From assembly GCA_044892525.1 (NCBI GenBank), contig CM097888.1:81282001-81346000 (forward strand): DNA of 64,000 nt, read 5' to 3'. The notes beneath the pieces were generated by a model. It saw only the letters and a program-made list of their open reading frames with translations. It was not told the DNA's origin and searched no databases. The position numbers and the translations under genes are program-made. Each line of letters opens with the position of its first letter. Within the stretch, counting starts at the first letter, position 1. Shown piece after piece: positions 2,260 through 56,634 of the stretch. This DNA is from Schmidtea polychroa. Taxonomy: Eukaryota.

Positions 2260-4424
2260 ATATAAGATAATTTCCTAATATATCTATCTAAAGAGACGCA
2301 ATATAATAAACTTTCCCAATTATTTTAACAAAATTTAAATTAATATTTTATAATTATGTTAAAGATTGAAAATTTAAATTGACATGTGTCTCGAGCTCAT
2401 AATTTTTATTTGTAATATATATAGAATAATTTACTACATTGTAATTATTACATATGTATATTGTTAGAAAATATATCATTAATTAATGCATTGAAAATAA
2501 ATATTTGTATCATTCTCTAAATGTTATCAATATTCTAAGTTACTCAAAAAGAAAGTTTGTTAGTGATAAAAAAACAAAACAGATTTCCATTAAAAATTAG
2601 AGATGAAATTTCTCTTTTTATCAACATAAAATGATTATTATTATATGTAATATTTCCAATGGCATGCAAAAATCTCCACACTTACCATTCTAGTCGAAGA
2701 TTGTAAATTTTGACTGAAATGAAAACAAGTTTGAAAAGTAGGCACAATGTTTCGACAAACAAACTAATAAGAAAGATTTTTCATGCGATTGGCTGGTTTC
2801 CTTGAAAATATTTATTAGTATTTTTTATTTATATCAGAAAATTTGTATCTATCCCAATGACTAATTTGACTCAGGAAGTTCATTGAATTGCCCAACTGTC
2901 TAGTTAATTCTTATTTGTTATTAATCATTTATTTAAATTATAATTATAATCAAAAGATTTTAAGCTAGTGTTCAAATTGTCTAAAATATATAAATGAAAT
3001 AACATTCAACTTTCACATAAATTGAATGATAAATGACAGGCATGGAATACATAAACTAAATTGAATTTCAACTTTAACGGTCGCATTTTATTGAAATATT
3101 AACCTTTTGCACTCCGTTGGCAACTATATGTCGCCACTATTTATAAGCTATACGACTTAAATAGTCATCGATTGTTGTTATTTTTGCTTAAATAAATTAA
3201 ATTACTAATATATCTAATGCTTTGAATGCACATGATACCTTTTTTTATTTTTTAATTAATTTTGTCTTAAGTCTACCATTTTTGTTTGAAATTTCAAAAA
3301 TGTATGTTGGAGTTATACAGGTATTTCATACAAAAAAATTCAAGAGTTGAAAGGTTTGTTGCTTCATTTCAAAAAGTATTATATATTTATATTTGTGAAA
3401 TTTTTGTATTTCTTAATATATTAAGTGTATAACGTTTTAAGAACTTTTAGCATAGTAAGTTATGGAAATACTATATATATATATATATATATACATATAA
3501 ATGGTATGCTATGAATATATAATTTAAGTTCCAATTTCAAATTTATTTTATCTAAAATATATTAATGTTAATAGAAGTCCGCAAATTGTTAAGCAAATCA
3601 GAGAAATTATTAGTAATAGTTATATTTTATAGGTTAATTTGTAGTTCACAACTTGTAAAGACAGATAAAAAATCTCCTTAGAATTGTGTAAATTATGGAT
3701 AAAAGTATGCATTCTTTCTCAAAAATTGAAAAGAGGTCATAAAGAAATCATAAATATTATTGAAAATAAAAATAAAACAAAAGAGATAGGATTAAGGAAA
3801 GTAGAGAACAATTGTTTGACATTTTGTCAGTTTGTACAGAATTTATATAATTTTAAGGTATAATTTTCAATGAAACAAAGCGAAATTTTAATAATCGACT
3901 CAAGTAAAATTGAAAAAAAGTCAAGTGTGAATCACACTGTGTGATACGTAAAAAAAAGAACCCATGAATATAATTTGTCATATTATTATAAGTTATACAA
4001 TAATGAATTTGACATCAATTATGAACTTGATGTTAAAAAGATACCTAATGTAATTTAAGTAAAATATCTGAACAGAATATTCTATAAAATCTTACTCAAT
4101 AATTGCTAAAAAGTATGGATTAAATAATTAAAAGTTCAGTCAATTTAAAAAGAAATTCGATGTAAAAAAGGAATGGTTCCAAATTTTAACACCAATTACG
4201 TTTTATGTTCGAAATATAAATTAATATTCTGCTTAATGTTTCAAAAATTGATATGATTTAAGATTTCATTGCAGACGTTTGTAGCCTTGGGTGGTTCAGT
4301 CGCAGATCTTCAATAAATTATATCATTATATTAAAATTAGTTTTAAAAGGGTACTCATTAGAATTTTTAGATCGACATAATGATCTATTCAGTGAAATAG
4401 TTCTTAAAATTGATTATACTAATG

Positions 4425-4647
4425 CAGTGGTTCCTAATCTTTAAGAAATTACGGAGCGCTTTTCATCATAAGAATAATTTGCGGAGCACCAAATCATAAA
4501 AATATGATTTAACAATAAAATTAATATGAACATTGATTTTATTTATACAGGTTACAAATAAACATAAGATAAAAAATCATTGCAAAATAACCAATATTTG
4601 ATGGAGAACTTATAACATTCTCGTGGAGCACCGGTTGGGAACCTCTG
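4425..4647. mobile_element. hAT-derived MITE, 223 bp
   Basis: TIRs CAGTGGTTCCTAA / TTGGGAACCTCTG; perfect 8-bp TSD TACTAATG at 4417-4424 and 4648-4655. Confidence 0.9.
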
Positions 4648-5665
4648 TACTAATGTAATATGTGAACATATATTGTGCAATTTAGAAAAGCTAGTCACAT
4701 ATTTTGATGATGAAGGAACATTGATGTTTTATGTTTAGATGAAGTAAAAAATAAAAATACAATTTCAAACTATATTTTATTTATATTATTTACTTAAAAT
4801 AAACATTAAAATAAAAATCTAATAAAAAAGAAATATTTTGTTACTATAGAAATAAAATTATAAGTTTTAATGAAAATAAATGAAATGTTGAGACAATAAT
4901 TTTCTTGAAATTTAATTTTTCTTATTAAATGTCAAAAATACAATTAATAGTATCGAATAACTTAGTGACAAAATCTGTAATGATGATTTGATTAATAATG
5001 TCAAACAGTGAATTTTTTAACAAGATTTTGAAAAAATAATAATGAACTTTTTTTTCATTATGTATTATAATAATTTAAAAAAATTCTTTTTATATGTTGC
5101 AATCTTTTACAGCTTCACTTGACATTTAAAATATTAAATTGCAATTTATGAATATTTCCCTTAATTCGTAATTAGATTTTTATAGGTAAGTGACAAAATA
5201 CATTCGGCGTTTTTGAATTAAAAATTCAATCAATTAATAAATTAATTCAAGCTCAAAATTGAATTATTATGTTGCAGAATAACATATTTTACATTGATGA
5301 AAATAATTACTATTTTTTTACTATTAATCAGTGCGTTATATTTTACAATAAATAAATACAATACAATAAAAATATTTTTGAACAAAAAAATTATATATAT
5401 ATTTATGTATGCATTAATAAACGAAATTATTTCCATTCCAATTTAGTAGCAATTTTATACTTTTTAATAACAGTATTTAGTTGATGAAATTAATTTTAAA
5501 AGAATGTAGGCGCTTATTGTTAATAACCATTGAACCAAAATAATTATGATAATTGTATTTCTTTTGTTATTTATGATAAGACTATCGAGTAAAAAAATAT
5601 ATTTGGAATATAATATAAAAGTTAGTTCAAATAAGTTTAAAAGTACTTAAACATACAGTAGGTAC

Positions 5666-5825
5666 NNNNNNNNNNNNNNNNNNNNNNNNNNNNNNNNNNN
5701 NNNNNNNNNNNNNNNNNNNNNNNNNNNNNNNNNNNNNNNNNNNNNNNNNNNNNNNNNNNNNNNNNNNNNNNNNNNNNNNNNNNNNNNNNNNNNNNNNNNN
5801 NNNNNNNNNNNNNNNNNNNNNNNNN
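5666..5825. other. Assembly gap (160 N)
   Basis: Run of N. Confidence 1.
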
Positions 5826-6418
5826 CTGATATTTTTATATTTATTATTATTACATCGTTTAAATATGAATTTTCGGAAATGTCTATAATGAAAGGTTTCT
5901 ACAATTATTCCTCAAACAAAAATGATAAAAATGAGTATGTGGTATCAAATGAAAGATATTTATAATACAAAGAAGTACAAATCTGAGAATGATCTTACGC
6001 TAGAATATCATTATAATAACTCAAATGGTCTCCTATCCAAAACTTTAATTTTCCAATAGTAATTAGTATTGAACTTATGAAACAATCAAATCAAAATTTC
6101 TAAAAAGATCTATTGAAATCTAAAATTTGTTAATAATTAAAATCTTTTAAAAGTTGACAACTCAACAATTTAATCTATTGCCAGCGAGATCTTTAATGTT
6201 TAACCGAATTTTAAAAAATTAGTGTGAAAATGGATTTGTTCTATAAACAAACCAGAATTATTCAATAAATGATGAATAAAAGTAATAATAATACGTCTGT
6301 GTTGTGATGATTTTATATGAGTTGTTCCAAATAAATAAATTTGTTTTTAATACTTTTACACCAAAAACTTAAAATAATAACCTCAATTTCTTGATATGGT
6401 TTCAAAAAGAGGATACAT

Positions 6419-6574
6419 NNNNNNNNNNNNNNNNNNNNNNNNNNNNNNNNNNNNNNNNNNNNNNNNNNNNNNNNNNNNNNNNNNNNNNNNNNNNNNNNNN
6501 NNNNNNNNNNNNNNNNNNNNNNNNNNNNNNNNNNNNNNNNNNNNNNNNNNNNNNNNNNNNNNNNNNNNNNNNNN
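6419..6574. other. Assembly gap (156 N)
   Basis: Run of N. Confidence 1.
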
Positions 6575-7679
6575 AGTGTAAATGTAGCATTTCCGTATTC
6601 GTAAAATACTTGTTTTACATTCATAATAGTGTCTTCACTGTAACAGGACTGTAAATTAAAAGAAAACGTGAATTATGATATTTAGAACATCAATGTTGTA
6701 CATAATTATGACGTATTACTAACAAAAATAATGGAAATTTTAATGTTTTTGATTTGCCTACTAAAAAAATAGATTATACCTGCTTCGCTCGATTTACGAA
6801 AATATGTGTAATAGGAATTAAAAATTCAACATATATAAAAATTGTTTTAATGGAACTATTTTTGGTTGGCTATATTTAAATACAATTGACTACTTATTTA
6901 TTGATGGCATGGATGACAAGAAGTACTGAAGTGCATTTAACAACCTAATTTATTACTAATTGGGTTTTATATATATTTTAACGAATATTGATTGAATTTT
7001 GAGATTATTTTCAGTTTACCTAGGTTTTGTATGAGAAGTCTCCCTACCAAATTTGGTTAAATTTGGATGCAAATTGAGGTTGCATATAGGAGGGCACACA
7101 CAAACTTTGAGAAATATGGATATAGAAGATATTCAAGATATTTATAAATGGTTGAAAAGTGGTTCTTTGTCCGCTTTAAACTGCAGGTGCTGCAAATTAG
7201 CTATCACTTATAGCTATCGCTTTTGGTCTTTTAATATCAATTATAACTAATTTAAAAATAAAAACATGCGTTTTCATATAGTCGAGTTTGTATAAGAGGG
7301 AAATGGACAAATATATTAAGACCTTTATAGTTGACTATCAGTTTACTGAATAGTATTAAGGTTTGTTAAAATTCTACACTGTAAATGCATCAAGAGTGAT
7401 AAAACACTTTTAACGCAGGTTAGAGAATCCTTAACCATTGGAATTTAGCAATTCTAGCAAGGACGGAAATGCAGTGCATTTAATTTCTATAGTATTTTCT
7501 ATAGTAATATATAGTGAAAAGTTGTTTTAAATATAACAAAGAAATATTTCTGTCATTAAGGGGCCACGCGAATAATGGAGTTTGACGACGTTTTCCCAGA
7601 CCCGGATTTAATGAGTTATCCATAGGAAATCATGAACTATTGTCAGTTAATAGGTAGTAGATGAATTCTCAGTGTGTAT

Positions 7680-36627: not shown

Positions 36628-37376
36628 GTTTTGATTAATCCTCTGGCGTTTTACACCTACTAATGCCTAGATTTTCCGTAATTGCCAACAAACTGAAAGA
36701 TAGAAAAGAAGCCAAAATAGGCAAAATGAATGGGAAACCATAATAAAACGGGTGGCAAATTTGTATAATAACATGCACTAGAAGGATTATTTATTTAAGA
36801 TATCCAACAAATTAAGCAAGCAATTAACAAATACTTAAAAAAATATTAAATAATTCAATCAAGCAAATAACAGATAGGCAATTGCAAAAAAAAGAAATAT
36901 CTACAATTTAACAAAATTTGTGAATATAGCAGAGTTACAAGAAGCAAAAATTTAATATGTTTGAGTGATGACAACCAAGGGTCAAGTAATATAAAGAAAA
37001 CAAATGTTTGAATGATTTCCTCCTAAAATATAATACAAAATGTTCTCTTATCTTTAAAATTTGCTGTAAAGCATATAAACTTTGAAAATCAACACGACAT
37101 TTTTTCGAGTAATTTTTCTATTCTATTTCGACTATACCTTTTATAAAATAAAATATTCAACTAAATTTCTAGAAAATATAAAATTTATGACCTAAGATGT
37201 TTAGTACTGACTTTATTTAAATTGTTAATTTAACCAAATTTACATTTTATAAATAATGTTTATTTTCTCGACTTTGTAATTTTGTTTTATTGCATTATCG
37301 GCCACATTTAAAGCGGTATTTTAAATCAATATAATTTTAATTATTTTTTAAAATTAATATATTAATATATTAACAA

Positions 37377-38780
37377 ATGTTCGAAATAATGGATATCACG
37401 ATGAAGTTTATGGATATGAATAAAGAAGTTCTATTATTTTTATGTATATTCCTGTTCATGTGGTTGACCTATTTGTGGGATGCTTACTTAGATTGTAGAC
37501 AGCAAAAGGTTCTTAATAAATTAGTCGAGCCTACAACTGAAACTTCTTTAATAATGAATGAAGAAAATTATAAAAAAGCAAGGCTTTATAGTATAGATAC
37601 TAAAAGATTTGGCTCGTATCATAAATTATACCAAATGGTAGAATCCTCTCTTGTGTTGTATTATAATATTTTACCATGGCTGTGGAAGTTTTCGCTTTCC
37701 TTAATTGTGAGCAAAGTCGAAAATTTGACAGTTATTCAAGAGTTGAATGCGTCTATGCTGTTTTTATTAATTGCTGGTCTGTATTCGTTTGTTTTTGGCA
37801 TGCCTTGGAAAGTGTATAGTATATTTGTTATTGAGGCAAGACATGGTTTCAATAAACAAACACCTTTTTTCTTTATTAAAGACCAGATCAAGTCTTTGTT
37901 TGTATCAGTCATTATAATGTTACCAATTTCATATTGTTTATTATTCATTATAAAGTTAGGGGGTCCATATTTTTATGTGTATGCATGGTGTTTTGCTTTT
38001 GTAATAATGATGTTTTTAATGTTTGTTTATCCTGAATTTATAGCTCCATTATTCGATAAATATACTCCGTTAGCTGATGGTGAATTGAAAAAAGGAATTG
38101 AAAATCTTGCTGAGAAAATTGGATTTCCACTGAAAAAGTTATATGTTGTCGAGGGTTCTAAGAGGTCTAGTCATAGTAATGCTTATTTTTATGGAATTTG
38201 GAAAAATAAAAGAATCGTTTTGTTTGATACATTGTTGCAGAATTATGTGACAGATTCAGACTTGAATAAAACAGAAAATGATGAAAGTTCAGACGGGAAA
38301 AAAGGTTGCAATGATGAAGAAGTTATTGCTGTTTTAGGACATGAATTAGGCCATTGGAAATTAAATCACGTATTACAAAGTTTAATAATTAGTCAAATTA
38401 ATCTGTTTCTTATGCTTTTTATGTTTGGTATTTTGTTTAATTTAAATGTCTTGTTTAGAGCTTTTGGTTTCGTGGAAATAGAAACACCCACTTTAATTAG
38501 GTTGTTATTGATAATTTGCTATTTATTTAGTCCTTATCATTTCGTTTTGGAATTTTTTATGACTTTGTTGTCAAGAAAAAAGGAATTTGAAGCTGATGAG
38601 TTTGCAGTAAACCTGGGCTATGGAGAAAAATTGATTAATGCATTAGTTAAACTGCATAATGATAATTTATCATTTCCAATTTTTGACAATTTGTATTCAA
38701 TTTTTAATCATTCTCATCCTCCTATTTTAGAAAGAATAGAAGCTATTAAGAATAATAAAGAATATAAAAAAACAAAATGA
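37377..38780 (+). CDS. ZMPSTE24: CAAX prenyl protease 1 (peptidase M48), 467 aa, single exon
   Basis: HELGH zinc motif, VVEGSKRSSHSNAYFYG, IVLFDTLL, EFEADEFA, HSHPPILERI; multiple TM segments; uninterrupted ORF. Confidence 0.97.
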   Translation: MFEIMDITMKFMDMNKEVLLFLCIFLFMWLTYLWDAYLDCRQQKVLNKLVEPTTETSLIMNEENYKKARLYSIDTKRFGSYHKLYQMVESSLVLYYNILPWLWKFSLSLIVSKVENLTVIQELNASMLFLLIAGLYSFVFGMPWKVYSIFVIEARHGFNKQTPFFFIKDQIKSLFVSVIIMLPISYCLLFIIKLGGPYFYVYAWCFAFVIMMFLMFVYPEFIAPLFDKYTPLADGELKKGIENLAEKIGFPLKKLYVVEGSKRSSHSNAYFYGIWKNKRIVLFDTLLQNYVTDSDLNKTENDESSDGKKGCNDEEVIAVLGHELGHWKLNHVLQSLIISQINLFLMLFMFGILFNLNVLFRAFGFVEIETPTLIRLLLIICYLFSPYHFVLEFFMTLLSRKKEFEADEFAVNLGYGEKLINALVKLHNDNLSFPIFDNLYSIFNHSHPPILERIEAIKNNKEYKKTK

Positions 38781-38886: not shown

Positions 38887-40433
38887 ATGGCTTCTAATTT
38901 AGATGTTGAAGTACTTTCAAAGTATAATAATATTTTATTAGTTATTTCCAATAACCATAATTTAAAAGGTGTATTATTACCTGTTAATGACGAGTAATTT
39001 TATAACAATAAATATATCTAATTGTTATCATTAATTATAGAAACAAACTTCGATTAGAACATTTTATTAATAATTATAATAAAGAAAACAATAATATTGA
39101 AGTGAAACCTGAACAAGAAAGCTTATTTTGTATACCTGATTCAACGTTGTCTCATTCAGCAGTAGAATCAAATATGAGCACCAATCTCAGTAATAATAAT
39201 GACGTGTGTAAAAAATGTAAACGTGTATTAAAAGCAACTAAACGAAAATTAGTAAGCAGAGAAGTAGAACGCCTTACTAATCATGGATTCAATGAAGTAA
39301 TTTTAAAGAAAAAAAACATATCGAGACGATCTACAAAAACTAAAGAAGAATTAGTTAACGGAGAAAAGTTCAATGGAAAAATTTATAAAAAGAGATCACA
39401 TGATCAAAATAAGGAAAGTGATTCAGATTTAAATAACGGTGGTTCTAAGGTTTTAAATGCCAAAAAAGACGAAGTTTTATCCATTCGAAAAACTAAAGAC
39501 AGAGCTCTTAAAACAAAAGCTAATGAGAAGATAATTGACTTATGTACTAGAAAACCAAGTAAGGTCAAAAAGTACAAACAAGAATTAAAAAAGAAATTAA
39601 AAATAGATCACTCTGATGAAATATTATCCGCGAATTCACCAGTTAAAGTGTCCGATGCATCTATATATGATTTTGTTGATGAAGATTACGAATCTGAACC
39701 CATTAAACCTTTATATAAAGAAAATAAAAAGTCTTATTTCATTGATAAAAGTAGTAATTCTACGAAACTCGATAAACGAAGCTATCAACGAAAGTTACCA
39801 GCAAAAGCTAGTAATAAAGATGATGAAATTCATTCAAATCCTGGCATTATGTTTTATGAATATAAAGGTACTAAGTTTAGTATAAATAATATAGTTTGGG
39901 CTAAAATTCCGGGCTATCCATTTTGGCCGGCACATATTAAGTCATTCGATAATGTAAGTGCCTCGAAATCTCAGGGTAAAAGGTGTCGAATTAATTGGAT
40001 TGGTTGGAATCAAAAGTCATTTCTACCACTTAAATCTCTATTGCATTTCGAAGAGCATTTCAAAATGAAGTATTCCACGAAGTTCAAATCACAAAAGTAT
40101 AAAACCGCTATTGAACTCGCTTGTAAAGAATTGAATTTAAATCTTGATGATTTGATAGGAGAATTGCCTAAGAAATCGCCAATGTCGGATAGGAATAATT
40201 CATCGCAAAATTCAAACCACGGCAAAAGGAAATCAATAGATTTAGATGACATTTTCCCTACTAAGAAAAATTCGAAAAATATTTCAGACATTGATGTGGT
40301 TGCCAAAGCTTATTCGGATGAAGATACGGACGAAGAGGAAAAAGCTCGATCTGCCTTGATCACAGCCGAAAGTTTGGAGGCGAACAGAATGATGTCGGAC
40401 ATGATGATGAAAAAGACTGAATTTGATTACTAA
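38887..40433 (+). CDS. PWWP domain protein, PWWP2-like, 499 aa, 2 exons
   Basis: Exon 1 38887-38993, 47-bp GT-AG intron, exon 2 39041-40433 (1500 nt total). IVWAKIPGYPFWPAHI...INWIGWNQKSFLPLKSLLHFEEHF..KYKTAIELA resembles the PWWP2 domain. Confidence 0.88.
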
Positions 40434-44063: not shown

Positions 44064-46470
44064 TGTCACAGGTAAACCCAATTTTACATTGTCAAGTTGT
44101 CGCCCAACGCAACCCATAATGCAATGGTTTGCTATGCCATTCGACACCCGTTGGATGATCAACGTTGGAACAGTGTTGGATGAGAGAATACTCGCGAACT
44201 ATAAAATATTAAAAGAGAGTTTGACTGCTACTCCGCATTTCCTATGCTGCTGTTCATTAGTTCATTAGCTAGAATTTTCTCACTCTGTACGTCCTGTTGT
44301 AATGATTGGATCTAATCTCTCGCTCTAAAGTAATATATCATGATTAAAGTGCTTGAAGGTATGGGAAATTGCTAAGTATTAGTTAAGTAATTTTAATAGT
44401 TATATACACAGTCAAAGTTTATAAAGTTTAATTATTTACTATTTATTTTTACATCAAAATTTCACCAGAAAAAAAACTCTATAGGACATCGTTTCCCCCC
44501 TCTACTCTGTATCCACTGCTGTAAATTATCTCAGGCACTACCCGTCATCGTCGTTGATTCCCAATTCTTCACACTAACAAAATGATAACGAAGAAAATAA
44601 ACAACACTTTTATTTCGACTTAATAAAAACACATCAATGCTCCAAATACATCAAGCACCAATCGTGGCATCGGATTTTGTTCGGGAACCGACTTTGTGTA
44701 CGTCTGTTGGATGTCTCAACTGGATGCCAAAGCACATTTTCTAGCACTTCGATTTCGCTATTCAAGTATTGTGCAAGATCTATTTTCCATGATTGATCTA
44801 CCAGGTTACATTGTTCGCCACCAGTACTGGGAATCAGTCACGTTCAACGCGAGGTAGATGTCCAATGGCTTCGTGTATTGCATGAACAACCAGGGACCGA
44901 GCTAACCGCGTGTCGCTCAGTATGGGTTCCTTCGTGAGCATAATCATAGGTTCCTATTAGTGGTTCGCAGATAATCCACATTTTACTATGTCGTGTTGTC
45001 GCTAACGCAACCAAAGATACAATGGTTTGCATCTGTTGAATGATGAACGTTTGAACTGTTTGTACTGGGCGAATACTCGTGAAAAGTTTGTCACCTTTGT
45101 CACAATCAATTATCCTTGTGGTGACAAATTTCATTATCCACTCTTCTTTGAGTATTCGAGCCATTGCCTTCTCATATTGTATTTTAACCGCATGTAGGGA
45201 AATAAATTTACTGCGATAGTCAATAATCCCAATAACGTATAGTTCACCTCTTATTACTGGTTGTAATGAGCCACAAAAATTCATGTTAATTCTCTTGTAT
45301 AACTTAGAATCGTTTGTACATATCATTTTTCTTTAATTCTTGTTGTATCAACCTTTCGTTTTTAACAATTTTCACAAGCTTGTACAGTATTAAGAACAGA
45401 TTGTTCTAAATCTTTCATGTTAAAATTGTTTGATATATGCATTTTGACTTTCATAGCACCAGCATGATAAATCTTTTTATAATACTCTATGATGAACTTA
45501 GATTTGTTATCCTTTGGAATCCAAATTTTGTTATCAGTTGTTACTACAACTCCATTTATGTATTTAAAGAATGTTTTATTCGGGTTTTTATCAATACTTT
45601 CTTTCAACCTTTCAATATTTTTGCCATTTTTTTCTATTATTAGTGTTAACAATCTGGTTTTTAACTTACCCATCTTAGGGTTTTCATGAACGTTTGGTAA
45701 ACGTTTCAAACCAAAGCGTTAGCGTTACTATGATTTTCACCTTTTCTGCATTGTAAATCAATGTCTAAACTGCCAAGATAATTTATCCATGTTTGAAATT
45801 GTGAAGTAATAGCTTTCTTAGTTTTCATCATAAATGTAATAGCTTTGTGATCTGTTCTTAGTATAAAACCCTTACCATATAAATAATGCTTAAAATGATT
45901 CGTAAAATAAAATTTAGATAATAATAATCTAGATAATAGCCTAATTTATGCTTACTCATGGGCCGAGATTTATACGCAATGACTCTTTTTTATTTCACTT
46001 TGTTTGAGATAATACAGCACCGATGAGATCAAAGCATCGTTATCCAATATGAACAGCTTAGTAAAATCTGAAAATTTTAAAACAGATGTAGACGTTGATT
46101 TTAGCTTTAAATTTTGAAAAGAACTTTCACAGTCATCAGTCCACATTAGTTTCTTTTGTCTACTCCCACATAGCGCTTCTAATACTTTTGAGTCTTTTGT
46201 ATAATTTCCTATAAATTTGCAATAACAATTTGCTAGGCCTAAAAATCCTCCCAAACTGGCTTCATTCTTTTTGAATTGACATTTAGATGGGCATATTTTT
46301 GAGTTTGCTAATTCAATATTTTGAAATACTTTTTCAATAGTTTTATAATGTTCATCTAGTATTATAGAGAAGATAAGGATATCATCAAGATTCAATTCAC
46401 CAAGAACAAGATTCATAAGTCTTTGAAATGTTGCTGGTGCGGAAGCTATCCAAAATGGCATTATATTGAA
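44064..46470 (-). mobile_element. Ty3/Gypsy 3' part: RT-RH-INT remnants, PPT and 3' LTR (44488-44064)
   Basis: [28 protein letters not shown] (RT); YHAGAMK..CENC (zinc finger); integrase core at 44844-45326; PPT AGGGGGGAAACGA then TGT...ACA 425-bp LTR. Confidence 0.8.
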
Positions 46471-46698
46471 GTAATACCCTCTACCAAATTTTCCTATCAT
46501 TGAAATATCAGGTCTAGCCTGAAGTGCTTTCAAGAATGCCTTAGTTCCAGATCTTGCAATTGTTCTCAAATTATTAATAAAATCTGCCTTTGTCATTCCG
46601 ATTCCAGTGTCGATAATAGTTAAAGTTCCAGCATCTTTATCGTGAATCATTTGAATCATTAAATCATTTGCATTGTCAGCATGATACACAGCTTCCAT
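46471..46698 (-). pseudogene. HSP90: HSP90 N-terminal ATPase fragment A
   Basis: [53 protein letters not shown] vs canonical [19 protein letters not shown](K/R)[28 protein letters not shown]. Confidence 0.92.
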
Positions 46699-48137
46699 TT
46701 AGCAAAAAGTAGTTGTTCGATCATCATATTTCCGAGTCATTATAACGAATAAAAACGAAACTTCAAAAAATCTTTATTCTACAGAATACGCACGAAACTC
46801 CTTTTTCAATCAAACTATGAAACTTTCAGAAAAAATTCAATATTAAGTCAATTAATAAAATTCAAAATACATTGTCCACGCACGTGTGCGTACACATAGA
46901 TATATACAACTTCAAAACAATACGCACACAGACGCGATAATTAACCTCAGGATTAACCATCCTCCCCATTTGACACCTTGGTGTCAATCTCAAATCCCCA
47001 TTACCTTCTTCTTCTACAATTAAACATAGTTTGGAGATACATCTCAATATCTCTTTTCCATCGCATTTAATTCTCATCACATGTAGTTTTCTGTCTTCTC
47101 CAGCCATCGCTTCAATTACCTTCCCTATTGGCCACTTTCCATACTCATTCTTTTTGTCTAATACCCATTTTGTTGACCCTGCCTGAAAATCATCTTCTAT
47201 CTTATTCCATTTGCCAAATATGACCATTTAACTTTTAACTCTGCCATTCAGTTGCCTCGTAAAATACGTCCGACCTCGATTGGAGCTTTCTCTTCCTCAG
47301 GATATACCTTATACTCTTGGCCAATCATATGTCCTGGTATTTGGTTGAGTCTCATACACGACTTCGTTTGTGGATTTTAGGATCTCCCCTTCTTATTGTA
47401 TCCATCTTCTCAATTCCTCTATCGTCTCATTTTTCATTTTGTCTTTCTACCATTTATAATCCAGATTAGTGGTTAACTTTCCCAAACATTTTTGAAAAAG
47501 ACAACCAGTCTTCAACTCGGATTCTTTCCCAGTGAATTTAAAGTGAACAGTGACTGTTTAAAATAGCCCCACAAACAAATCTAAATCCTTCAGCTCTCCT
47601 TCTTGAATTGGCCGAAACTTGTCCATCTCTTCTAACATAGCCAAGTTTTCATCCCCACCATATCGCCTATTCAAGTTTTCTGTATCCATTTGATAAGCCT
47701 CTGCCGAATATCCTAGGTTTTCTATAATTATTTTAATGGCTGATTGTGAAGGTACTTGTGCAGGTGAAACATCTTTTCTACATCTTCTCCTTCTGCTTTG
47801 TATACACACGCAATAAAAGCTACTTCTCACGGTCCGTACTTTTTCATTTTACGTTCAAAGACAGGTATTGTAATCTTTTGTAGGCTTTCCAGTTTTCTTT
47901 TCGGCACTGAATTCTTTTTCTTGATTGTTTCATTCGCATTTTCCTTCTCTTCTTAAAAGACTGATTTGTCTTTTTTTGCCATTAGTTCCTCAATTATTCG
48001 ATGCTTTTCTCGATTTCTTGCAAATCTTTGTCTAATACTACAGTGATATCCAATATTTGCAATTCTTTACTAATAGTTCTAAGATGCTCCAATTCTTCAT
48101 CTAGACTCTCCTTTGATCTTCAAATTTAGTCATCGTT

Positions 48138-48361
48138 TCCACCACATAACCTAACTAATAGGTTCAGAATTTCCCCATTATGAACATTATAATCGTGTAA
48201 GGTCCTCCTCTTGTTCAACAGTTTGTCATCGCAATTTATTCTTTGTATCTCAATTGAAATTCCTTCTATTCTATGAAGATTAACCATAATACTCTCAATT
48301 GTTTCACTTGCTCCCACTTTAAAAGCAGTATACGCTCCGTTATCGTTCTCACAAATATATG
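48138..48361 (-). pseudogene. Ubiquitin-like domain, full length with one 1-nt deletion, upstream of and in frame with gag-like sequence
   Basis: HIFVRTIT/G-AYTAFKVGASETIESIMVNLHRIEGISIEIQRINCDDKLLNKRRTLHDYNVHNGEILNLLVRLCGG. 224 nt, versus 225 expected for ubiquitin residues 2-76. Confidence 0.8.
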
Positions 48362-48819
48362 AAAAGAGTGCCGGGGCCTATAGTATCTTCAATTTCCCTT
48401 GCTGACCTAGGTATCAAACTCCCTCATCCACTGGAACTTACACAATGGAAACCTATTTCCTTTGAGACAAACGTATAACTCTTTCCCCAAACTTCATAAA
48501 ATTATAGCACCTTAAAAAGACGCCCGCTAAACTAACTCTAAAAACTGGGGAGTGAAGGGTGGCCAAAACTGATTTAAAATGCCTCAAATAATTTTCAACA
48601 TACATATATAAAAAATTAACAATATTCAAAATTGATTTTGATTGCCTCACATCACTTTCAATATTCATGTATAAAAAATTAAACTAATAATCACTTATCT
48701 GATACTGTCTATATCACCTTTAGTTTGGTAAGGCTGGATCATCTGGATCACCTGCGCGATTAATCTCTTTTCTGGTGCATAGCCCCTTGAAGGGAACCAC
48801 ACTGCTACCATGGTGAATT

Positions 48820-48938
48820 GAGTAGAACCCCTTACTCAATTGTCCTATAATTGAAACATCAGCTCCAGCCTGAAGTGCTTTCACGAATGCCTTAGTTCCA
48901 GATCTTGCAATTGTTCTCAAATTGTTAATCAAATCTGC
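48820..48938 (-). pseudogene. HSP90: HSP90 N-terminal ATPase fragment B
   Basis: [39 protein letters not shown]; ~14 mismatches in ~118 nt versus fragment A. Confidence 0.9.
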
Positions 48939-49734
48939 GAAACTTCAAAAATATCTTTATTCTACAAAATACGCGTGAAACTCCTTTTTCGAAACAAACT
49001 ATGAAACTTCCAGAAAACTTTCAATAATAAGTCAATTAATAAAACTAATAAAGTTCAAAATACATTGTATGTGACTGTGTGCGCACACATAGATATATAC
49101 ATTGTATATTATACAATTTCAAAACAACACAGACGTGATAATTAACCTCAGGATTGACCAATTATTTATGATTTATTTTATTTTCTAATTATTATATTTT
49201 ATTTAATTATATTTATTTCGCCATCATGATGGGTTTGGTCATTTTCTAGAATTTTCTATGCTATTTTTAATATTTTTATAATATAATTCCTATTTTTTAT
49301 TAACCAATTTTCTAAATTTTATATTTTTATCTAGTTGTTCGTTTCGGGGCCATGTAAGATTTCGTCATTTTCATAGAATATTCTAGTGGGTTTTATATAA
49401 TTTTTATTATTCCTAATCGATTTTTTATGCTATTTTAATGAACTCCTTCTATTTCTAGTTTCTATTTTCTTTTGTCACAATTTGAATTTGCCTACTCCTG
49501 GATATTTGTTTATACTATTTTATGTTTGTTTGTGCAATACTTCTTGCTTTTGCTATTAATTTACTTTATTTTTGTGTTTCTTCATTTTGATGTTGAGTAG
49601 TCTTTAATGTGTTTCTTTGGTGTTTTAATTGTTTTTCGATTTTTACTCGACTATGTCTGCGAGCTGTTTTTACACATTCTGATCACAAAATCAAATTTAT
49701 TTGGGTATAAAGTCAGGTTTTACCCAATACTTCT

Positions 49735-50233: not shown

Positions 50234-50733
50234 TGTGAGGTGTTTTCAGCTGAGAATTAAATATTTCAATTATTTATTACAATAATTTTAAATGATAAAT
50301 AATTGACTATTTAAAATAACTTTTAAAAACATTTTTAAATTGAATTTTTTAAATTGAAATTTTTAAATTTTGAAATTAAAAAATTAAACAAAAAAGTAAA
50401 TCATTTTTAAATAAATATATTTTAAATATCATAATTTTAATAAATGGTCTTTGAAATATTTTATTCAACGCTGAAAATTTGTTTGGAAATTATACAATAT
50501 TTCATTAAATAAATACTTGGAATTATGACGTTAACTTTTGAACCGGATTTAAAAAATAATTTAGAAGATGTGTTAGCAGCTTCTAATATGTCGACCACGT
50601 CTATGGATTTTTTCATAAAGAAGCTATTTCCAAACGATTATCATAAATGAGATGACGTTGAAGCATTCATTAAAGAATGCGATTAATATTTTAAAGTGGA
50701 TCGAATTATTGATCGATAAACATATCATATCAT

Positions 50734-50736
<3 letters not shown>

Positions 50737-50813
<77 letters not shown>
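50737..50813. repeat. (AT)38 microsatellite inside gag
   Basis: Directly visible, preceded by (CATAT)3. Confidence 0.95.
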
Positions 50814-50816
<3 letters not shown>

Positions 50817-53800
50817 GTTGACCAATATATCAAGTGTTATAAGGAAAGATTGCGGAAGAAATTCGTCAAGAAAACAAGTTTGGCAGAGGATTTACAATCT
50901 GCTATGTCTTATAGACAGACGAGTAAGGAGCCCGATAAATATTTTACTATCATAGACGAGTTAGTCGATAAAATATTGGGGCATGAGTTAAACAAGGAAA
51001 GTTTAACAGAATATCTGCTGGTATACTGTGCAGCCGAGAAGACTTTAAAACGAAAATTATGTCTAAGTGACACCAAAGAAACAACAGAAGTGAAGAAAAA
51101 CATCAAGAAGTTACACGAATCTCGTATAGTTGCAGAAGAGATCTATGCAGTGAGAGAAAGAAGGCCAGAACAGAATATGCTGACTCCCAAATTATTAATT
51201 ATTATAATAAAAATAAAATATAAAGTATTATAGAAAAAGATGTGAAAGATACAGAGGTAGCGAAAGAAGAAAATAATGTAATTAGGAAAGTAAACAGATT
51301 CATAAAAAAGGATTTTGCAGAAAAAGAAAGAGACAAAATACAAATACTCACATTAGATGAATGGAAAAATGATATTATTAGTTATGATAAAATGCAAGGC
51401 CAACCAAGTGTAACTATTAGAATACAAGACCAGAAGATGGAATGCTTGCTCGATACAGGCGCTACAGTAAATGTCATGAGTTGGAGCAAATTTGAGAAAC
51501 TTAAAGATGTAAAATTAACAACAACGACTGATACATTGAGATGTGCAAATAATAGTGTTTTAGAAACGAAAGGTAAAGTAATATTAGAAATAGGAATAAA
51601 TGTTTGGAAAAGAAGGGTAAAGTTTACGATAATAAGCTATTAGACTCCAGAGGTAATTGGTGGTATAGTCGCAAAAACAATTTGGTATACAACTAAAGTT
51701 GCCAGTAGAAGAGGTCGAGAAAACGAAGCAAGAGTACATATACAGTATCGCAGCCAATTTTTGGAAGACAATAACAGAGATGGAACGATTTCAAATAGCA
51801 AAGAATACTTTAAAGATAAATAACCCGATACTACTAAACATTATAAAAAAGAATCAAAATGTTTTTATGGCTGATAAATGGGACATTGGCTGCACAAAGC
51901 TGTTGAAGCATAAAATAGAAACTCAAGGAAAACCGATAAATATTAAACCTTGGAGACAACCAGTCAACTTAGAAGGTAAAATAGATAAAGCGATAAAAAC
52001 TTATGGGTAAAACAATATTATCAAAAAGTGTAATTCACCATGGAACACTCCATTAATATGCTCCTGGAAGAAAGAAAATCAAGATATCAGGTCTTGATTT
52101 CAGGCAATTAAACCTAGTAACAGAGAGACAGGCGTTCCCTATGCCGAATATAGCAGAGATGTTAGCGAAATTGGGTGGAGCAAAGTATTTCAGTTCGATA
52201 GATCTTGGAAATGCAGATTATCAAGTAGAACTAGAAGATAATCAAAGTTAAAAACGGCGTTTTCAACCAAATCAGGTCAATACTGTTTTAACAGAATGTC
52301 ATTTGGAATAGCAGTGGCACCAAGTACATTTCAGGAACTGATGGGAAAAGTATTAATGGGTGCGAGATATGCAGCAGTATACCTAGACGATATTTTGATA
52401 TTTACAGAAACGATCAATCATCACTACGAAGTTTTAAATGAAGTGCTGGATAAAATTGGGAAGGCGGGTCTTAGTGCCATATCCTTAAAGAGGAAGTTAA
52501 ATTTTTAGTCCACATAATCAACAAAGATGGAATACGGACCCATCAAAGCTTGACGCGATTAAATCATCTGAAAAGTCAAAATGTGTTAAGAATCTGAGAA
52601 GCTTCCTAGGAATATTTAATTAATACAGAAGATTTTTAAGGGAATACGCAAAAAAGGCAAGAGTTTTAGAAGAGCTATGCGGGTTAAACAACCAAAAATC
52701 AATTTGGACTGACGGATGCAACATCGCATTCGAAAATAGGAAAAATGCTTTAATGTCCTCACCTATTCTAGGGTTTCCAGATTTCGAAAGAGAATTCATT
52801 CTAGATACTAATGCGAGTTTTGACACGATTGGAGCAGTATTATCACAGAAAGACGACAACGGGTGCGAAAAGGTTATAGCATACGGTTCTCATGCAATGA
52901 GCAATCATGAAAAGGGAAAAAGGATATATAACAAGGAAAGAGTTGCTGGCAATCTATTATTTTTGCCAACACTTCAATTATTAATTATATGGAAAACGGT
53001 TCATTTTGAGAACAGACCACAAGGCTAACACGTTTTTGTCATCCACAAAGAAACCAATAACAACGCAATTTCAGACATGGATTAACTACCTCAGTAGCCT
53101 GGATATTAAAATAGAGTATAGAAAAGGTACGAATCATGCAAATGCAGATATGTTGTCAAGGAGTACATGTGGAACATGCACACAATGTTTATTGGCACAC
53201 GAAGACGTGAAAGTGGAAAGAATGAAAACCGGAAGAATAAACACGAAGGAAAAAGCTGAAGATTATAAGTGGCAAAAAGATAATACAGAAATAGAACAAA
53301 TAAAAAAGGAAATAGCACAGGGTTCAAGTTAAAAATTTATACTGGTAGACAACGTGTTGAAAACTATAGAGGGTAAGATATGGATACCTAGAGACAAAAG
53401 ACAAGAAATGATAAAGAGTCTGCATATTTTGCAATCACACGCAGGAGCAGAAAAGGTGACAAAATATGTAGCGGACAATTACGATATGGGAGACATAAAA
53501 GAATCAGTAAAAGAAATAATTGGACAATGTGAGGCATGCCAAAGAACGAAAGTTGTGACAACAAAGATGAAGGAAGAGACAATAAAACTGACGGCAGAGG
53601 AGCCATTGGAGAAAGTGTACATTGATATATGTGACCCATTACAGGAAACATTTAGAAAGAAAATATATATAGTCGCAATGATTGATCAATTTAGCAGATA
53701 TATCTCTCTTACTGCTGTCGCTAAACAGGATGAAGAAACGGTGAAGGAAACAATACTACAAAAATGGATTCTTAGATTTGGAGCACCAAAGGAAATTCAC

Positions 53801-54593
53801 ACAGATTGTGGAAAAGTATTTGAATCTAAGACGATGAAAGATTTCACAAAATCAAGTCCATACCACCATAATGCAAATGATGTGATAGAACGTCAATTCA
53901 CGACAATAAGAGACTATTTAAATGCACCATTAAAAGAAAGAAGTAGAACAGATTGGGCAGAGATCATACCAGAGATTGAATTTACCATGAATGCAACATT
54001 TCAGAAATCAATAGGGCGAAGTCCCACAGAACTAATATTTGGAAGAAAAATAGCTCTAGAATAATTTCATAGTAAGCGCCGTTTTCACAAAAAGAAGACA
54101 CACGAGAAACAACGCAAACAAAAAGATCATTCAATATTGGAGGTGAGGTTCTGGTAAAAGTCGAATCAAGAACGAAAGACAAGGTAAGATACGAAGGGCC
54201 ATACAGAATAATGCAGAAGATCCATGATCGCCGATATCTCCTACAAGACCAAAGTGGGAAAATGCTTCAAAGAAATGTTGAAAAGATAAAGAAATTTCTT
54301 AAAGAAGGGGATGTGAGGTGTTTTCAGCTGAGAATAAAATATTTCAATGATTTATTAAAATAATTTTAAATGATAAATAATTGACTATTTAAAATAACTT
54401 TTAAAAACATTTTTAAATTGAATTTTTTAAATTGAAATTTTTAAATCTTGAAATTAAAAAATTAAACAAAAAAGTAAATCATTTTTAAATAAATATATTT
54501 TAAATATCAAAATTTTAATAAATGGTTTTTGAAATATTTTATTCAACGCTGAAAATTTGTTTGGAAATTATACAATATTTCATTAAATAAATA

Positions 54594-56634
54594 CATTAAC
54601 GATTCACAAAAGGCAACTTCGCAAAAAGAAACTTTTCACAAAAAGAAACTAACGTAAAGAAACTTTTTTTGATTCAAATTAAAAAAGTGATTCAATAAAA
54701 GGAACTTTTGAAAATTTTGCTTTGTATATTTTGTTTAACGTAAATGTTTAACATTGCTAAATTTTCAAATAACTTTTGATTTACGTTAAATTTATTATAC
54801 CTGAGGTATTGCACTGTTAATGAAGCTATATAGTATGTACTATAAAATTCAATTTTAAACATTAAATATTCAAAAATAGCATTTGTTAGGCCCGCTATGA
54901 ATAAAAGAAAACAGAAACTAACAATTGAGGATAAATGTAATATCCTGACTGCATTGGAAGATGGTACCAAAGCCAACAATATTTGCGCACAATACGGTGT
55001 GAATAAAAGTACAATTTCTAAGATCAGAAATAACAAAGAAAACATAAAAGAATTTGCAAAGAATTCTATCCAGTCTACGAACAAAATTAAGAGAATTTCT
55101 ACAGTTAAATTTCCAGATATTGAAAAGGCCCTTTATCAGTGGTTTTTAAATGAGACACTCAAGCATAACATAATTAACGATGATATGCTTAGAATCAAAG
55201 CGCTAGAATTTCACCGTGATTTGAACTCTGACATTTTGTTTTCAGGCAGTCACGGTTGGATTCAAAAATTTAAAAGACGGCATTCAAATTCGAATCCTCA
55301 AAATTTGCGGAGAAAAATTATCCGCTAATGATTCTGCTGTACCTGCATTTATTGAAAATTTTAAGACGAATATTCAACGGCTAGGATTGCGACCTGAGCA
55401 AATATACAACGCAGATGAAACTGGATTAATTGTCAAAAATTTGAATTCCAAAACTTTAGTAACCAATCAAGAAAAATCTGCACCAGGTAGAAAATCCAGC
55501 AAAGAACGGATTACTGTAATGGGGTGTGTGAATGCAACTGGACAGCATAAACTACCCTTGATGATTATTGGGCGATCTAAAAATCCACGCTGCTTCAAAA
55601 ATACGACTTTACCTAGCATGCACTACCACTCATCAAAAAATGCGTGGCAAACAGGAGCGCTGTTTAAAGAATGGTTCCATGACGTATTTGTGCCAGAAGT
55701 TAAAAGAAATTTGATGCAGAAAAACTTACCTTTGAATGCGATTCTTCTGCTGGATAATGCCAGCTCCAATTGTTGTGGGGAAGAATTGAAATCGAGTGAT
55801 GGAAACATTTCGGTTATATATTTTCCTCCAAACACAACAGCGTTATTGCAACCACTCGATCAAAATATTATAAGATCACTAAAAACGTTGTACCGCAAGA
55901 AACTCTTACTCAGTTTATTGTCTCACAATAATCAAAATTTAGACGAAAAATTAAAGCACGTTACATTGAAAGAAGTTGTTTACATGGTGGTGGAGGCATG
56001 GAATGAAGTTAATATTCAAACAGTCAATTCTAGTTTTAAGCATCTGTTCTGCTCAGTTGATGAAATAATTTTTAATTTGCCACAGAATCACTTTTTAGAA
56101 GAGGACGAAATTCCATTAATAGAACTTTACCACCATGTAGTTCCAGGAGATAATATGAATGACGAGCAGATATTGAATTGGGCAAGAGGAAGTAACGAAA
56201 TGTCAAGATCATTAATTACCGAGGGCGAAATAATTGAAAATATTAATATGGATGATGCAGACAATTGTGGTGATTTTTCAAGCCCTGATGTTGACATTGC
56301 ACTCAGGAGCGTAAATGTAACTCTTAATGGGGCCGAATCTAATTTATCCATTTCTGATATATTGTTTCTTCGCAATATCAGAGACAAAATAACTTTAAAG
56401 AAGATTATGAACTAGTGTTTTCTACAATAAAAGTTTGTTTTCGTTATATATGCTATTTCTAATTGCTTAGTGATAAATATAAAATAATATTTACTTTAAA
56501 ATGTACTTAGAAATTGTTGTTTTTGCACACAAAATAGAATTGTACACTAAATTCACAAAAATAAACTTTTTACAGAAAAAGAAACTTTTTTTGAATTTTG
56601 TGTCAAAGAAGTTTCTTTTTCTGAATCTTCACTG
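54594..56634 (+). mobile_element. Tigger/pogo DNA transposon, 2041 bp, near-intact
   Basis: TIRs CATTAACGATTCACAAAAGGCAACT / AGTTTCTTTTTCTGAATCTTCACTG; TA TSD. CENP-B HTH plus DDE (YNADETG, LLLDNA, QPLDQ) from 54897 to 56415 with a single extra base near 55283. Confidence 0.95.

Follow-up and report, generated by a model that had tools for sequence, protein, structure and literature searches.

A ubiquitin-like domain fused ahead of Gag in BEL/Pao retrotransposons of Schmidtea polychroa and its possible role as a host-cleaved processing signal

A decayed BEL/Pao element and its ubiquitin-like domain

The window, the whole 64,000-nucleotide stretch of Schmidtea polychroa DNA analysed here, carries on its minus strand, from 49160 to about 46466, a dead and internally deleted BEL/Pao LTR element (Table 1). 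An earlier note had described a ubiquitin-like domain (Ubl) at the start of a BEL/Pao gag; the position was correct, and the strand is minus. Its description of a ubiquitin-length domain ending in LVRLCGG and broken by one 1-nt deletion is likewise borne out. The longer frame matches the Pfam ubiquitin family PF00240 at 34.4 bits (E 1.9e-8; cut-off 25.4), and the domain is spread over two frames, with IFVRT at 48358-48344 and LVRLCGG at 48158-48138. The frameshift corresponds to a one-base gap relative to four of the five sister copies aligned there. The BEL/Pao assignment stands on a weak DUF1759 and a DUF5641 match in the window, and on the full Pao-type domain set of two relatives elsewhere in the genome, L061 and L062. 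The Gag region of the window copy is 81% identical to L062 over 932 nt, and some 4 kb of pol is absent where window position 47219 joins the integrase end of L062 (subject 3103 to 7067).

Beyond the GG, the same frame was said to continue as a coiled-coil-like stretch. The frame does run on, with stops, and reads ESLDEELEHLRTISKE at 48110-48063, but about 100-110 nt are absent from the window directly after GG-NDD relative to the sister copies, so the coil there is not the genuine post-GG sequence. The heads of the two LTRs are identical in 179 of 198 aligned columns, as befits an old copy, and an HSP90 fragment is present in both LTRs. The primer-binding site presumably matches the initiator methionine tRNA; no tRNA gene was found in the 64-kb window.

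Table 1. Layout of the retroelement on the minus strand, in 5' to 3' order of the element
Feature	Position in window	Strand	Evidence
5' LTR (TG...CA), short, with HSP90 fragment	48811..49160	-	Comparison of the two LTR heads
HSP90 ATPase-domain fragment in 5' LTR; frame continues through primer site	48811..48940	-	Direct repeat of the Pfam-positive piece in the 3' LTR
Primer-binding site, decayed	48793..48810	-	
Leader, primer site to Ubl; stops here, open in most young relatives	48362..48792	-	
Ubl, C-terminus LVRLCGG, one frameshift near 48,320-48,330	48138..48361	-	Pfam PF00240
Gag N-terminal helical region, remnant with stops and frameshifts	47850..48137	-	Long helices predicted in a natural relative
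Decayed Gag; DUF1759 region about 47435-47725	47219..47849	-	PF03564, 15.9 bits, weak, below cut-off
Integrase end (DUF5641), fused to gag by internal deletion of about 4 kb	46973..47215	-	PF18701, 33.2 bits, above cut-off
Polypurine tract	46960..46972	-	
3' LTR, longer HSP90 fragment about 46470-46745; low end uncertain, merges into gypsy-type RT	46466..46959	-	HATPase_c_3, 25.9 bits

At its low end, the 3' LTR HSP90 fragment runs into gypsy-type RT/RNase H sequence in one open frame of 242 codons (45970-46745, minus strand). This sequence may be LTR cargo or a neighbouring insertion; the sister copy L199 has a similar RT piece upstream of its primer site. Elsewhere in the window are two adjoining long single-frame host-like genes on the plus strand, encoding a CAAX prenyl protease (Peptidase M48; 37374-38780) and a PWWP-domain protein (39012-40433); a gypsy-like element (50234-54594) in which 283-nt direct repeats, 98% identical, surround RNase H and integrase frames; and a Tc5/pogo-like transposase with CENP-B_N, HTH_Tnp_Tc5 and DDE_1 domains (54846-56415, plus strand).

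The fusion across the genome

On comparison of the window Ubl with its own genome, all 150 of the sequences scored, from 604 candidates, were matches. Of the 100 Ubl-hit loci fetched, 26 were chosen for the length of their frames or their closeness to the window copy. The other 74 were unpicked, frame playing no part in their choice; the window-Ubl list of 150 rows supplied 60 of them, leaving out rows already taken and neighbouring duplicates, and a second list of 154 rows supplied 14. The GG ending is found in 96 of the 100. Because these loci were selected by their likeness to the Ubl, the fair test is offered by 30 loci picked by DUF1759 alone, six of which repeat earlier loci and three of which are tandem neighbours. 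A Ubl lies upstream in 28 of these 30, ending in GG in 26 of the 28, and in 22 of the 30 Ubl and DUF1759 share one open frame. The domain is thus a trait of the family, and natural copies exist with no stop between GG and gag.

The continuous Ubl-gag frame that the note had proposed to look for extends in L061 (2238 codons) and L062 (1866 codons) through RT and integrase, in the order ubiquitin-DUF1759-RT (RVT_1)-Peptidase_A17-DUF5641, with a weak Integrase_H2C2 match in both. This is the Pao-type gag-pol domain order, and the paired TG...CA LTRs, primer site and polypurine tract are likewise those of BEL/Pao elements. Target-site duplications of BEL/Pao elements are 5 bp long; they were recovered in 13 of the 26 loci with automatically resolved LTR ends, every one of them 5 bp. 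Many young copies are derivatives of 4.5-5.5 kb that lack RT. The suggestion that an active ancestor encoded a ubiquitin-Gag polyprotein was right as to the fusion but too narrow as to its age, since the fusion is also carried by young copies with LTRs more than 99% identical and is therefore not only ancestral. No full-length BEL family without a Ubl was available as a control among 20 loci with divergent RT (nine with a Ubl upstream and 11 lacking the 5' end).

All 60 PDB matches listed for the Ubl are ubiquitin, on which ground an origin from NEDD8 or SUMO was rejected, and a chance match was likewise rejected. A predicted model shows a beta-grasp domain, low-confidence residues 73-76 and then the Gag helices (mean pLDDT 76), and carries no information on cleavage; a single-sequence model of Gag was discarded at pLDDT 45. 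By Pfam, PDB comparison and model, a ubiquitin fold thus stands in frame with a downstream protein, as in linear ubiquitin fusions. Fragments of bovine viral diarrhoea virus (BVDV) among the top fold matches reflect only the shared ubiquitin.

Against protein databases, a query of the whole Ubl-Gag region returned mostly polyubiquitins; none of the 120 matches listed carried DUF1759, and among the best 150 representatives none had its best-matching stretch in Gag. A Gag-only query found five distant BEL proteins, 21-24% identical, which, unlike the present family, have no ubiquitin Pfam entry; among proteins of 165-525 aa it found no match. In a listing of sequencing runs, 12 of 16 rows, from four studies and under two organism labels, contain part of the queried stretch, with no RNA among them. 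For the 5' region of a family A copy, about 40% of its sequence words are present in runs X2 and X3, of the second organism label, which is only a lead towards another species.

Three lineages and the origin of the ubiquitin domain

The elements fall into three lineages, distinguished by the tail of the Ubl and the residues that follow it: family A (LRLCGG, then NDEE), family B (LGLAGG, then SPVS) and family C (VALKGG, then SKES). The RTs of B and C are 51-57% identical to that of A, and together they form one clade relative to five outside BEL proteins. An L-x-G-G motif stands at the Gag junction in all three, with Leu73, Gly75 and Gly76 kept and residues 72 and 74 variable.

The window copy is an older side branch of family A, its Ubl grouping with those of four sister copies at 100/100. 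This placement bears on whether the Ubl could be a later retrocopy or chance insertion in one dead element. Such an origin might be suggested by the heavy decay of the window copy and by its Ubl, which in a single-frame alignment shares only about 33% identity with host ubiquitin, but the same junction recurs in the sister copies and the Gag-picked loci, and we give this explanation next to no credence. A processed ubiquitin pseudogene in particular, with a single locus, its own poly(A) or target-site duplication and neutral decay, is ruled out by the Gag-picked loci, by the selection described below and by the absence of any poly(A) tract in the bases flanking the window Ubl; a poly(A) of its own had been named beforehand as the mark of a retrocopy.

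The family A Ubl is identical to host ubiquitin at 51-55 of 75 residues with synonymous sites saturated, and was therefore captured long ago. Family B occurs with one Ubl or with two, and in the double form the additional, upstream ubiquitin derives from unit 2 of the host polyubiquitin gene L194 (dS 0.08-0.18; support 99/94). The second unit, compared with unit 3 of L194, is 94% identical in its 5' half and only 67% in its 3' half, a pattern suggestive of recent template switching, in which copying passed from host polyubiquitin mRNA to the older B Ubl and the old tail was retained. In one B copy (L313:3393-3514), only the last 29 Ubl residues are left, in frame between the primer site and Gag; the RT of this copy has near-identical neighbours about 27 kb apart.

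An open frame from the 5' LTR and its host mRNA cargo

The Ubl had been placed at the N-terminus of gag. It does lie directly before Gag, but the frame of many copies begins within the 5' LTR, 200-400 codons ahead of the Ubl. The primer site is in phase with the GG in 44 of the 70 unpicked copies that have a primer site and out of phase in 26; leader lengths shared by at least two loci are in phase in 14 of 18 cases, against 11 of 27 singletons. Among copies with LTRs at least 99% identical, 16 of 22 are open for more than 100 codons into the LTR, and 21 of 27 Gag-picked copies are open through the primer site. Over the last 200 LTR codons, the Gag frame has 334 stops and the others 876 and 1449; over the first 70 leader codons, the figures are 81 against 337 and 368. 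In 20 non-redundant leaders, taken from 66 in-phase ones, the Gag frame contains 19 stops and the other two 163 and 159, and 13 of the 20 are fully open where 0.07 would be expected; copies share ancestry, so such counts are not independent. In L061 (758-1112), a 78-bp tandem repeat in the LTR grows by whole codons inside the open frame.

The LTR-Gag frame contains 13 kinds of host piece: proteasome alpha-6 (PSMA6), SNF8, a dual-specificity phosphatase (DSPc), a Ras-family GTPase, a TCP-1 chaperonin (CCT), a RING finger, eIF1, actin, HSP90, ClpP, myotubularin, adaptin-N and, directly after the primer site, HSP70. Finer names that we assume for some of these are DUSP12, Rab1, CCT3, RNF126 and coatomer gamma. 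The pieces lie inside the LTRs, in both 5' and 3' copies; they are partial, freely swapped and common to several families, and look like samples of abundant housekeeping mRNAs. SNF8 cargo is 95-98% and chaperonin cargo 99% identical to the host genes. For two pieces, capture was from spliced mRNA, as the eIF1 piece lacks a 59-nt GT-AG intron and the ClpP piece an 88-nt GT-AG intron; the SNF8 and CCT stretch is a single exon and thus uninformative on this point.

The 3'-most match is in the Gag frame for PSMA in 46 of 50 cases, SNF8 in 16 of 19, DSPc in 18 of 18, RING in 20 of 21, CCT in three of three and Rab in three of four; the eIF1, ClpP/myotubularin and actin queries gave no rows in this count. 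As a control for frame bias, the other five frames were scanned in 150 of 212 non-redundant stop-free segments, the 62 shortest being left out. The single new host piece was an antisense glutaredoxin, and the remainder comprised frameshifted known cargo, neighbouring transposons and repeat artefacts. Antisense exceptions upstream of the primer site occur in two old copies, namely this glutaredoxin (L145:7324-7479, plus strand) and an HSP90 piece (L201:1468-1660, minus strand).

Several further observations concern the cargo. A RING-finger piece (L118:6789-7364, minus strand) gave 976 first-look candidates, and all 40 scored were 94-100% identical. The phosphatase cargo of a family B copy (L073:8300-9032, minus strand) retains the catalytic HCxxGxSRS motif. 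The host PSMA6 gene was not found among 14 loci and three further candidates. The LTR-like loci L207-L213, L214-L217 and L220 carry longer proteasome-alpha pieces and, with neither Gag nor a primer site to be seen within some 9 kb, are probably solo LTRs; in one of them the same frame also holds ClpP and myotubularin pieces, and together they explain many of the 80 Proteasome_A_N matches in the genome.

It is conceivable that Gag translation starts at a methionine near the Ubl, which would still be cleaved, while the cargo sits in U3 or is skipped and the long frame is a by-product of sense capture and shared ancestry. An in-frame methionine just ahead of the Ubl in 59 of 69 A copies means that family A might not need the LTR frame to produce Gag. 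First ATGs within the LTR show no bias to the Gag frame (7, 6 and 7 of 20), and the LTR end often has an AATAAA about 40 nt away, which would allow the cargo to be in U3; mRNA capture would, moreover, yield sense, stop-free pieces without selection. Capture accounts for strand but not for phase, however, as the PSMA count illustrates, and the AT-rich leader stays open despite many length changes. In addition, the eIF1 match reaches the last bases of the LTR, and none of 22 B copies has an in-frame methionine within 20 codons of the first ubiquitin. A start at a nearby methionine is accordingly rated as rather unlikely.

Selection and drift of the ubiquitin domain

Among the checks proposed in the note was an estimate of dN/dS on the Ubl. 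Pooled over pairs of stop-free copies, which share ancestry and are not independent, dN/dS in family A is 0.29 for the Ubl, 0.27 and 0.23 for Gag and 0.83 for the LTR cargo. In family B, on the same footing, it is 0.23 for the Gag-proximal Ubl, 0.17 and 0.14 for Gag and 0.89 for the cargo, and the recently captured upstream ubiquitin is neutral at 1.14. The Gag-proximal Ubl is therefore under purifying selection much as Gag is, and the leaders stand at 0.58 and 1.4. As read from these sequences, constraint is confined to the ubiquitin unit that touches Gag, as a processing signal predicts. The SNF8 and CCT pieces have dN below dS relative to the host genes, for which selection on the host side may be responsible.

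The domain has nevertheless drifted from the canonical LRLRGG tail and Leu8-Ile44-Val70 patch, with R74C, I44V and V70S in A and R72G, R74A and I44N in B. All 60 distinct A sequences have Cys in place of Arg74, and the Gly72, Ala74 and Asn44 of B are present in 16 of 16. Deubiquitinases read Arg72, Arg74 and Ile44 of ubiquitin, and the drifted surface is, at the level of sequence, the main argument against canonical deubiquitinase recognition. It favours an explanation in which the Ubl stays on Gag as a folded domain, where it might act as a tag for solubility or expression, offer a binding surface, or keep Gag levels down as a ubiquitin-fusion-degradation handle. Lys48, Lys27 and Lys11 are mostly kept, purifying selection acts over the whole domain beyond the tail, and an internal SUMO-like domain is described in the accessible part of the study on planarian Burro gypsy elements (PMC6431247). 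Retention would leave unexplained why Leu73-x-Gly-Gly lies exactly at the Gag junction of all three lineages despite wide differences elsewhere in their Ubls, and an uncut Gag would carry 200-400 variable residues in many young copies; we regard it as unlikely.

Alternatively, the cargo or the released Ubl could itself be the useful product, as a proteasome, ESCRT or ubiquitin decoy, or the cut could expose an N-degron that sets the half-life of Gag. Several cargos do act in protein turnover or trafficking (PSMA6, SNF8, RING, chaperones), the phosphatase motif mentioned above is intact, and family A would expose Asn, a destabilising N-terminal residue. Families B and C would expose Ser instead, and neither the near-neutral cargo and upstream ubiquitin nor the partial, swapped, housekeeping-like character of pieces shared between families is what a selected product would lead one to expect. 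Such functions appear very unlikely.

Relation to known systems

The present element probably belongs to the Flow group of BEL/Pao, judging from its sequence. The start of the L062 RT matches Flow NC-63 at 38 of 60 residues by eye and is 28-36% identical to five other BEL proteins; the RT tree covered the three lineages and outside BEL proteins, Flow sequences not among them. Members of the Flow superfamily (NC-63, NC-703; PMC3118150) share with it, in the portion of that article available, a single gag-pol frame with DUF1759, RT, Peptidase_A17, integrase and DUF5641, as well as TG..CA LTRs and a 5-bp target-site duplication. The elements are classified there by protease, RT and integrase, and the word "ubiquitin" is absent from that portion.

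The closest functional parallel is found in cytopathic pestiviruses (BVDV Osloss, CP1, CP Rit), where, in the excerpts available, captured host ubiquitin in the polyprotein yields an authentic downstream N-terminus (PMC8310069, PMC13517609), and an S27a-ubiquitin insert ahead of NS3 is cut by cellular ubiquitin C-terminal hydrolases (PMC8310069). As here, the ubiquitin is sometimes double and preceded by other host sequence. The pestivirus inserts are recent, sporadic and near-canonical, reside in an RNA virus and have been shown to be cleaved, whereas the present Ubl is old, fixed over three lineages, diverged and located before Gag, and its cleavage is one that we infer.

Capture of partial, spliced and sometimes multi-gene mRNA pieces through template switching is known from LTR-mediated retroposition (Tan et al. 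2016, PMC5131818), and the sections available include a capture by a Pao element and cite maize Bs1. The retrocopies described there replace internal ORFs between the LTRs, in contrast to the present cargo, which lies inside the LTRs, in elements with full pol frames and in phase with Gag. The accessible part of PMC4299795 likewise concerns internal captures only. Burro giant gypsy elements of planarians (PMC6431247) are also flatworm LTR elements with host-derived polyprotein domains, including a Ubi2/SUMO-like one; they differ in being gypsy elements whose domain is internal, after Gag, and the available text describes neither a GG processing role nor LTR cargo. In line with the earlier note, which knew of no such architecture, the full-text literature (a scope outside which Repbase and subscription papers fall) yielded no LTR element, of BEL/Pao or any other kind, in which ubiquitin precedes Gag, and the variant is apparently previously undescribed.

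A proposed host-cleaved processing signal and its implications

The reading that we consider probable is that the captured GG-ending Ubl acts as a processing signal, cleaved by the host, which frees Gag from whatever is encoded upstream. RNA would begin upstream of the LTR cargo and ribosomes would initiate there, while the reverse transcriptase would, near the LTR end, switch template onto co-packaged host mRNA. Captured pieces would persist only if the frame remained open. Host deubiquitinases would then cut after GG to leave Gag with a fixed N-terminus, and such cleavage would make the amino-acid content of the cargo irrelevant to Gag.

A broader picture can be drawn tentatively, and we would put it at somewhat short of an even prospect. 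An old clade of animal LTR retrotransposons would have fixed host-cleaved ubiquitin in Gag biogenesis and so uncoupled the translation start from the N-terminus of Gag. The LTR would have become a translated cassette of swappable gene fragments, autonomous elements would have carried in-frame host mosaics into hundreds of loci, and both chimeric peptides and a non-canonical ubiquitin would be made in stem or germ cells.

Annotators should be warned that LTR cargo accounts for hundreds of seeming "paralogues" of PSMA6, SNF8, phosphatase, RING and ubiquitin in this genome. The Ubl also offers a concrete reason why an LTR element could capture genes without loss of autonomy. If the proposed cleavage takes place, this would be, as far as the searched literature shows, the first retroelement case of pestivirus-type ubiquitin processing, one fixed over long evolution rather than arising as a dead-end mutation, and these elements would depend on their host for a deubiquitinase required for the maturation of Gag.
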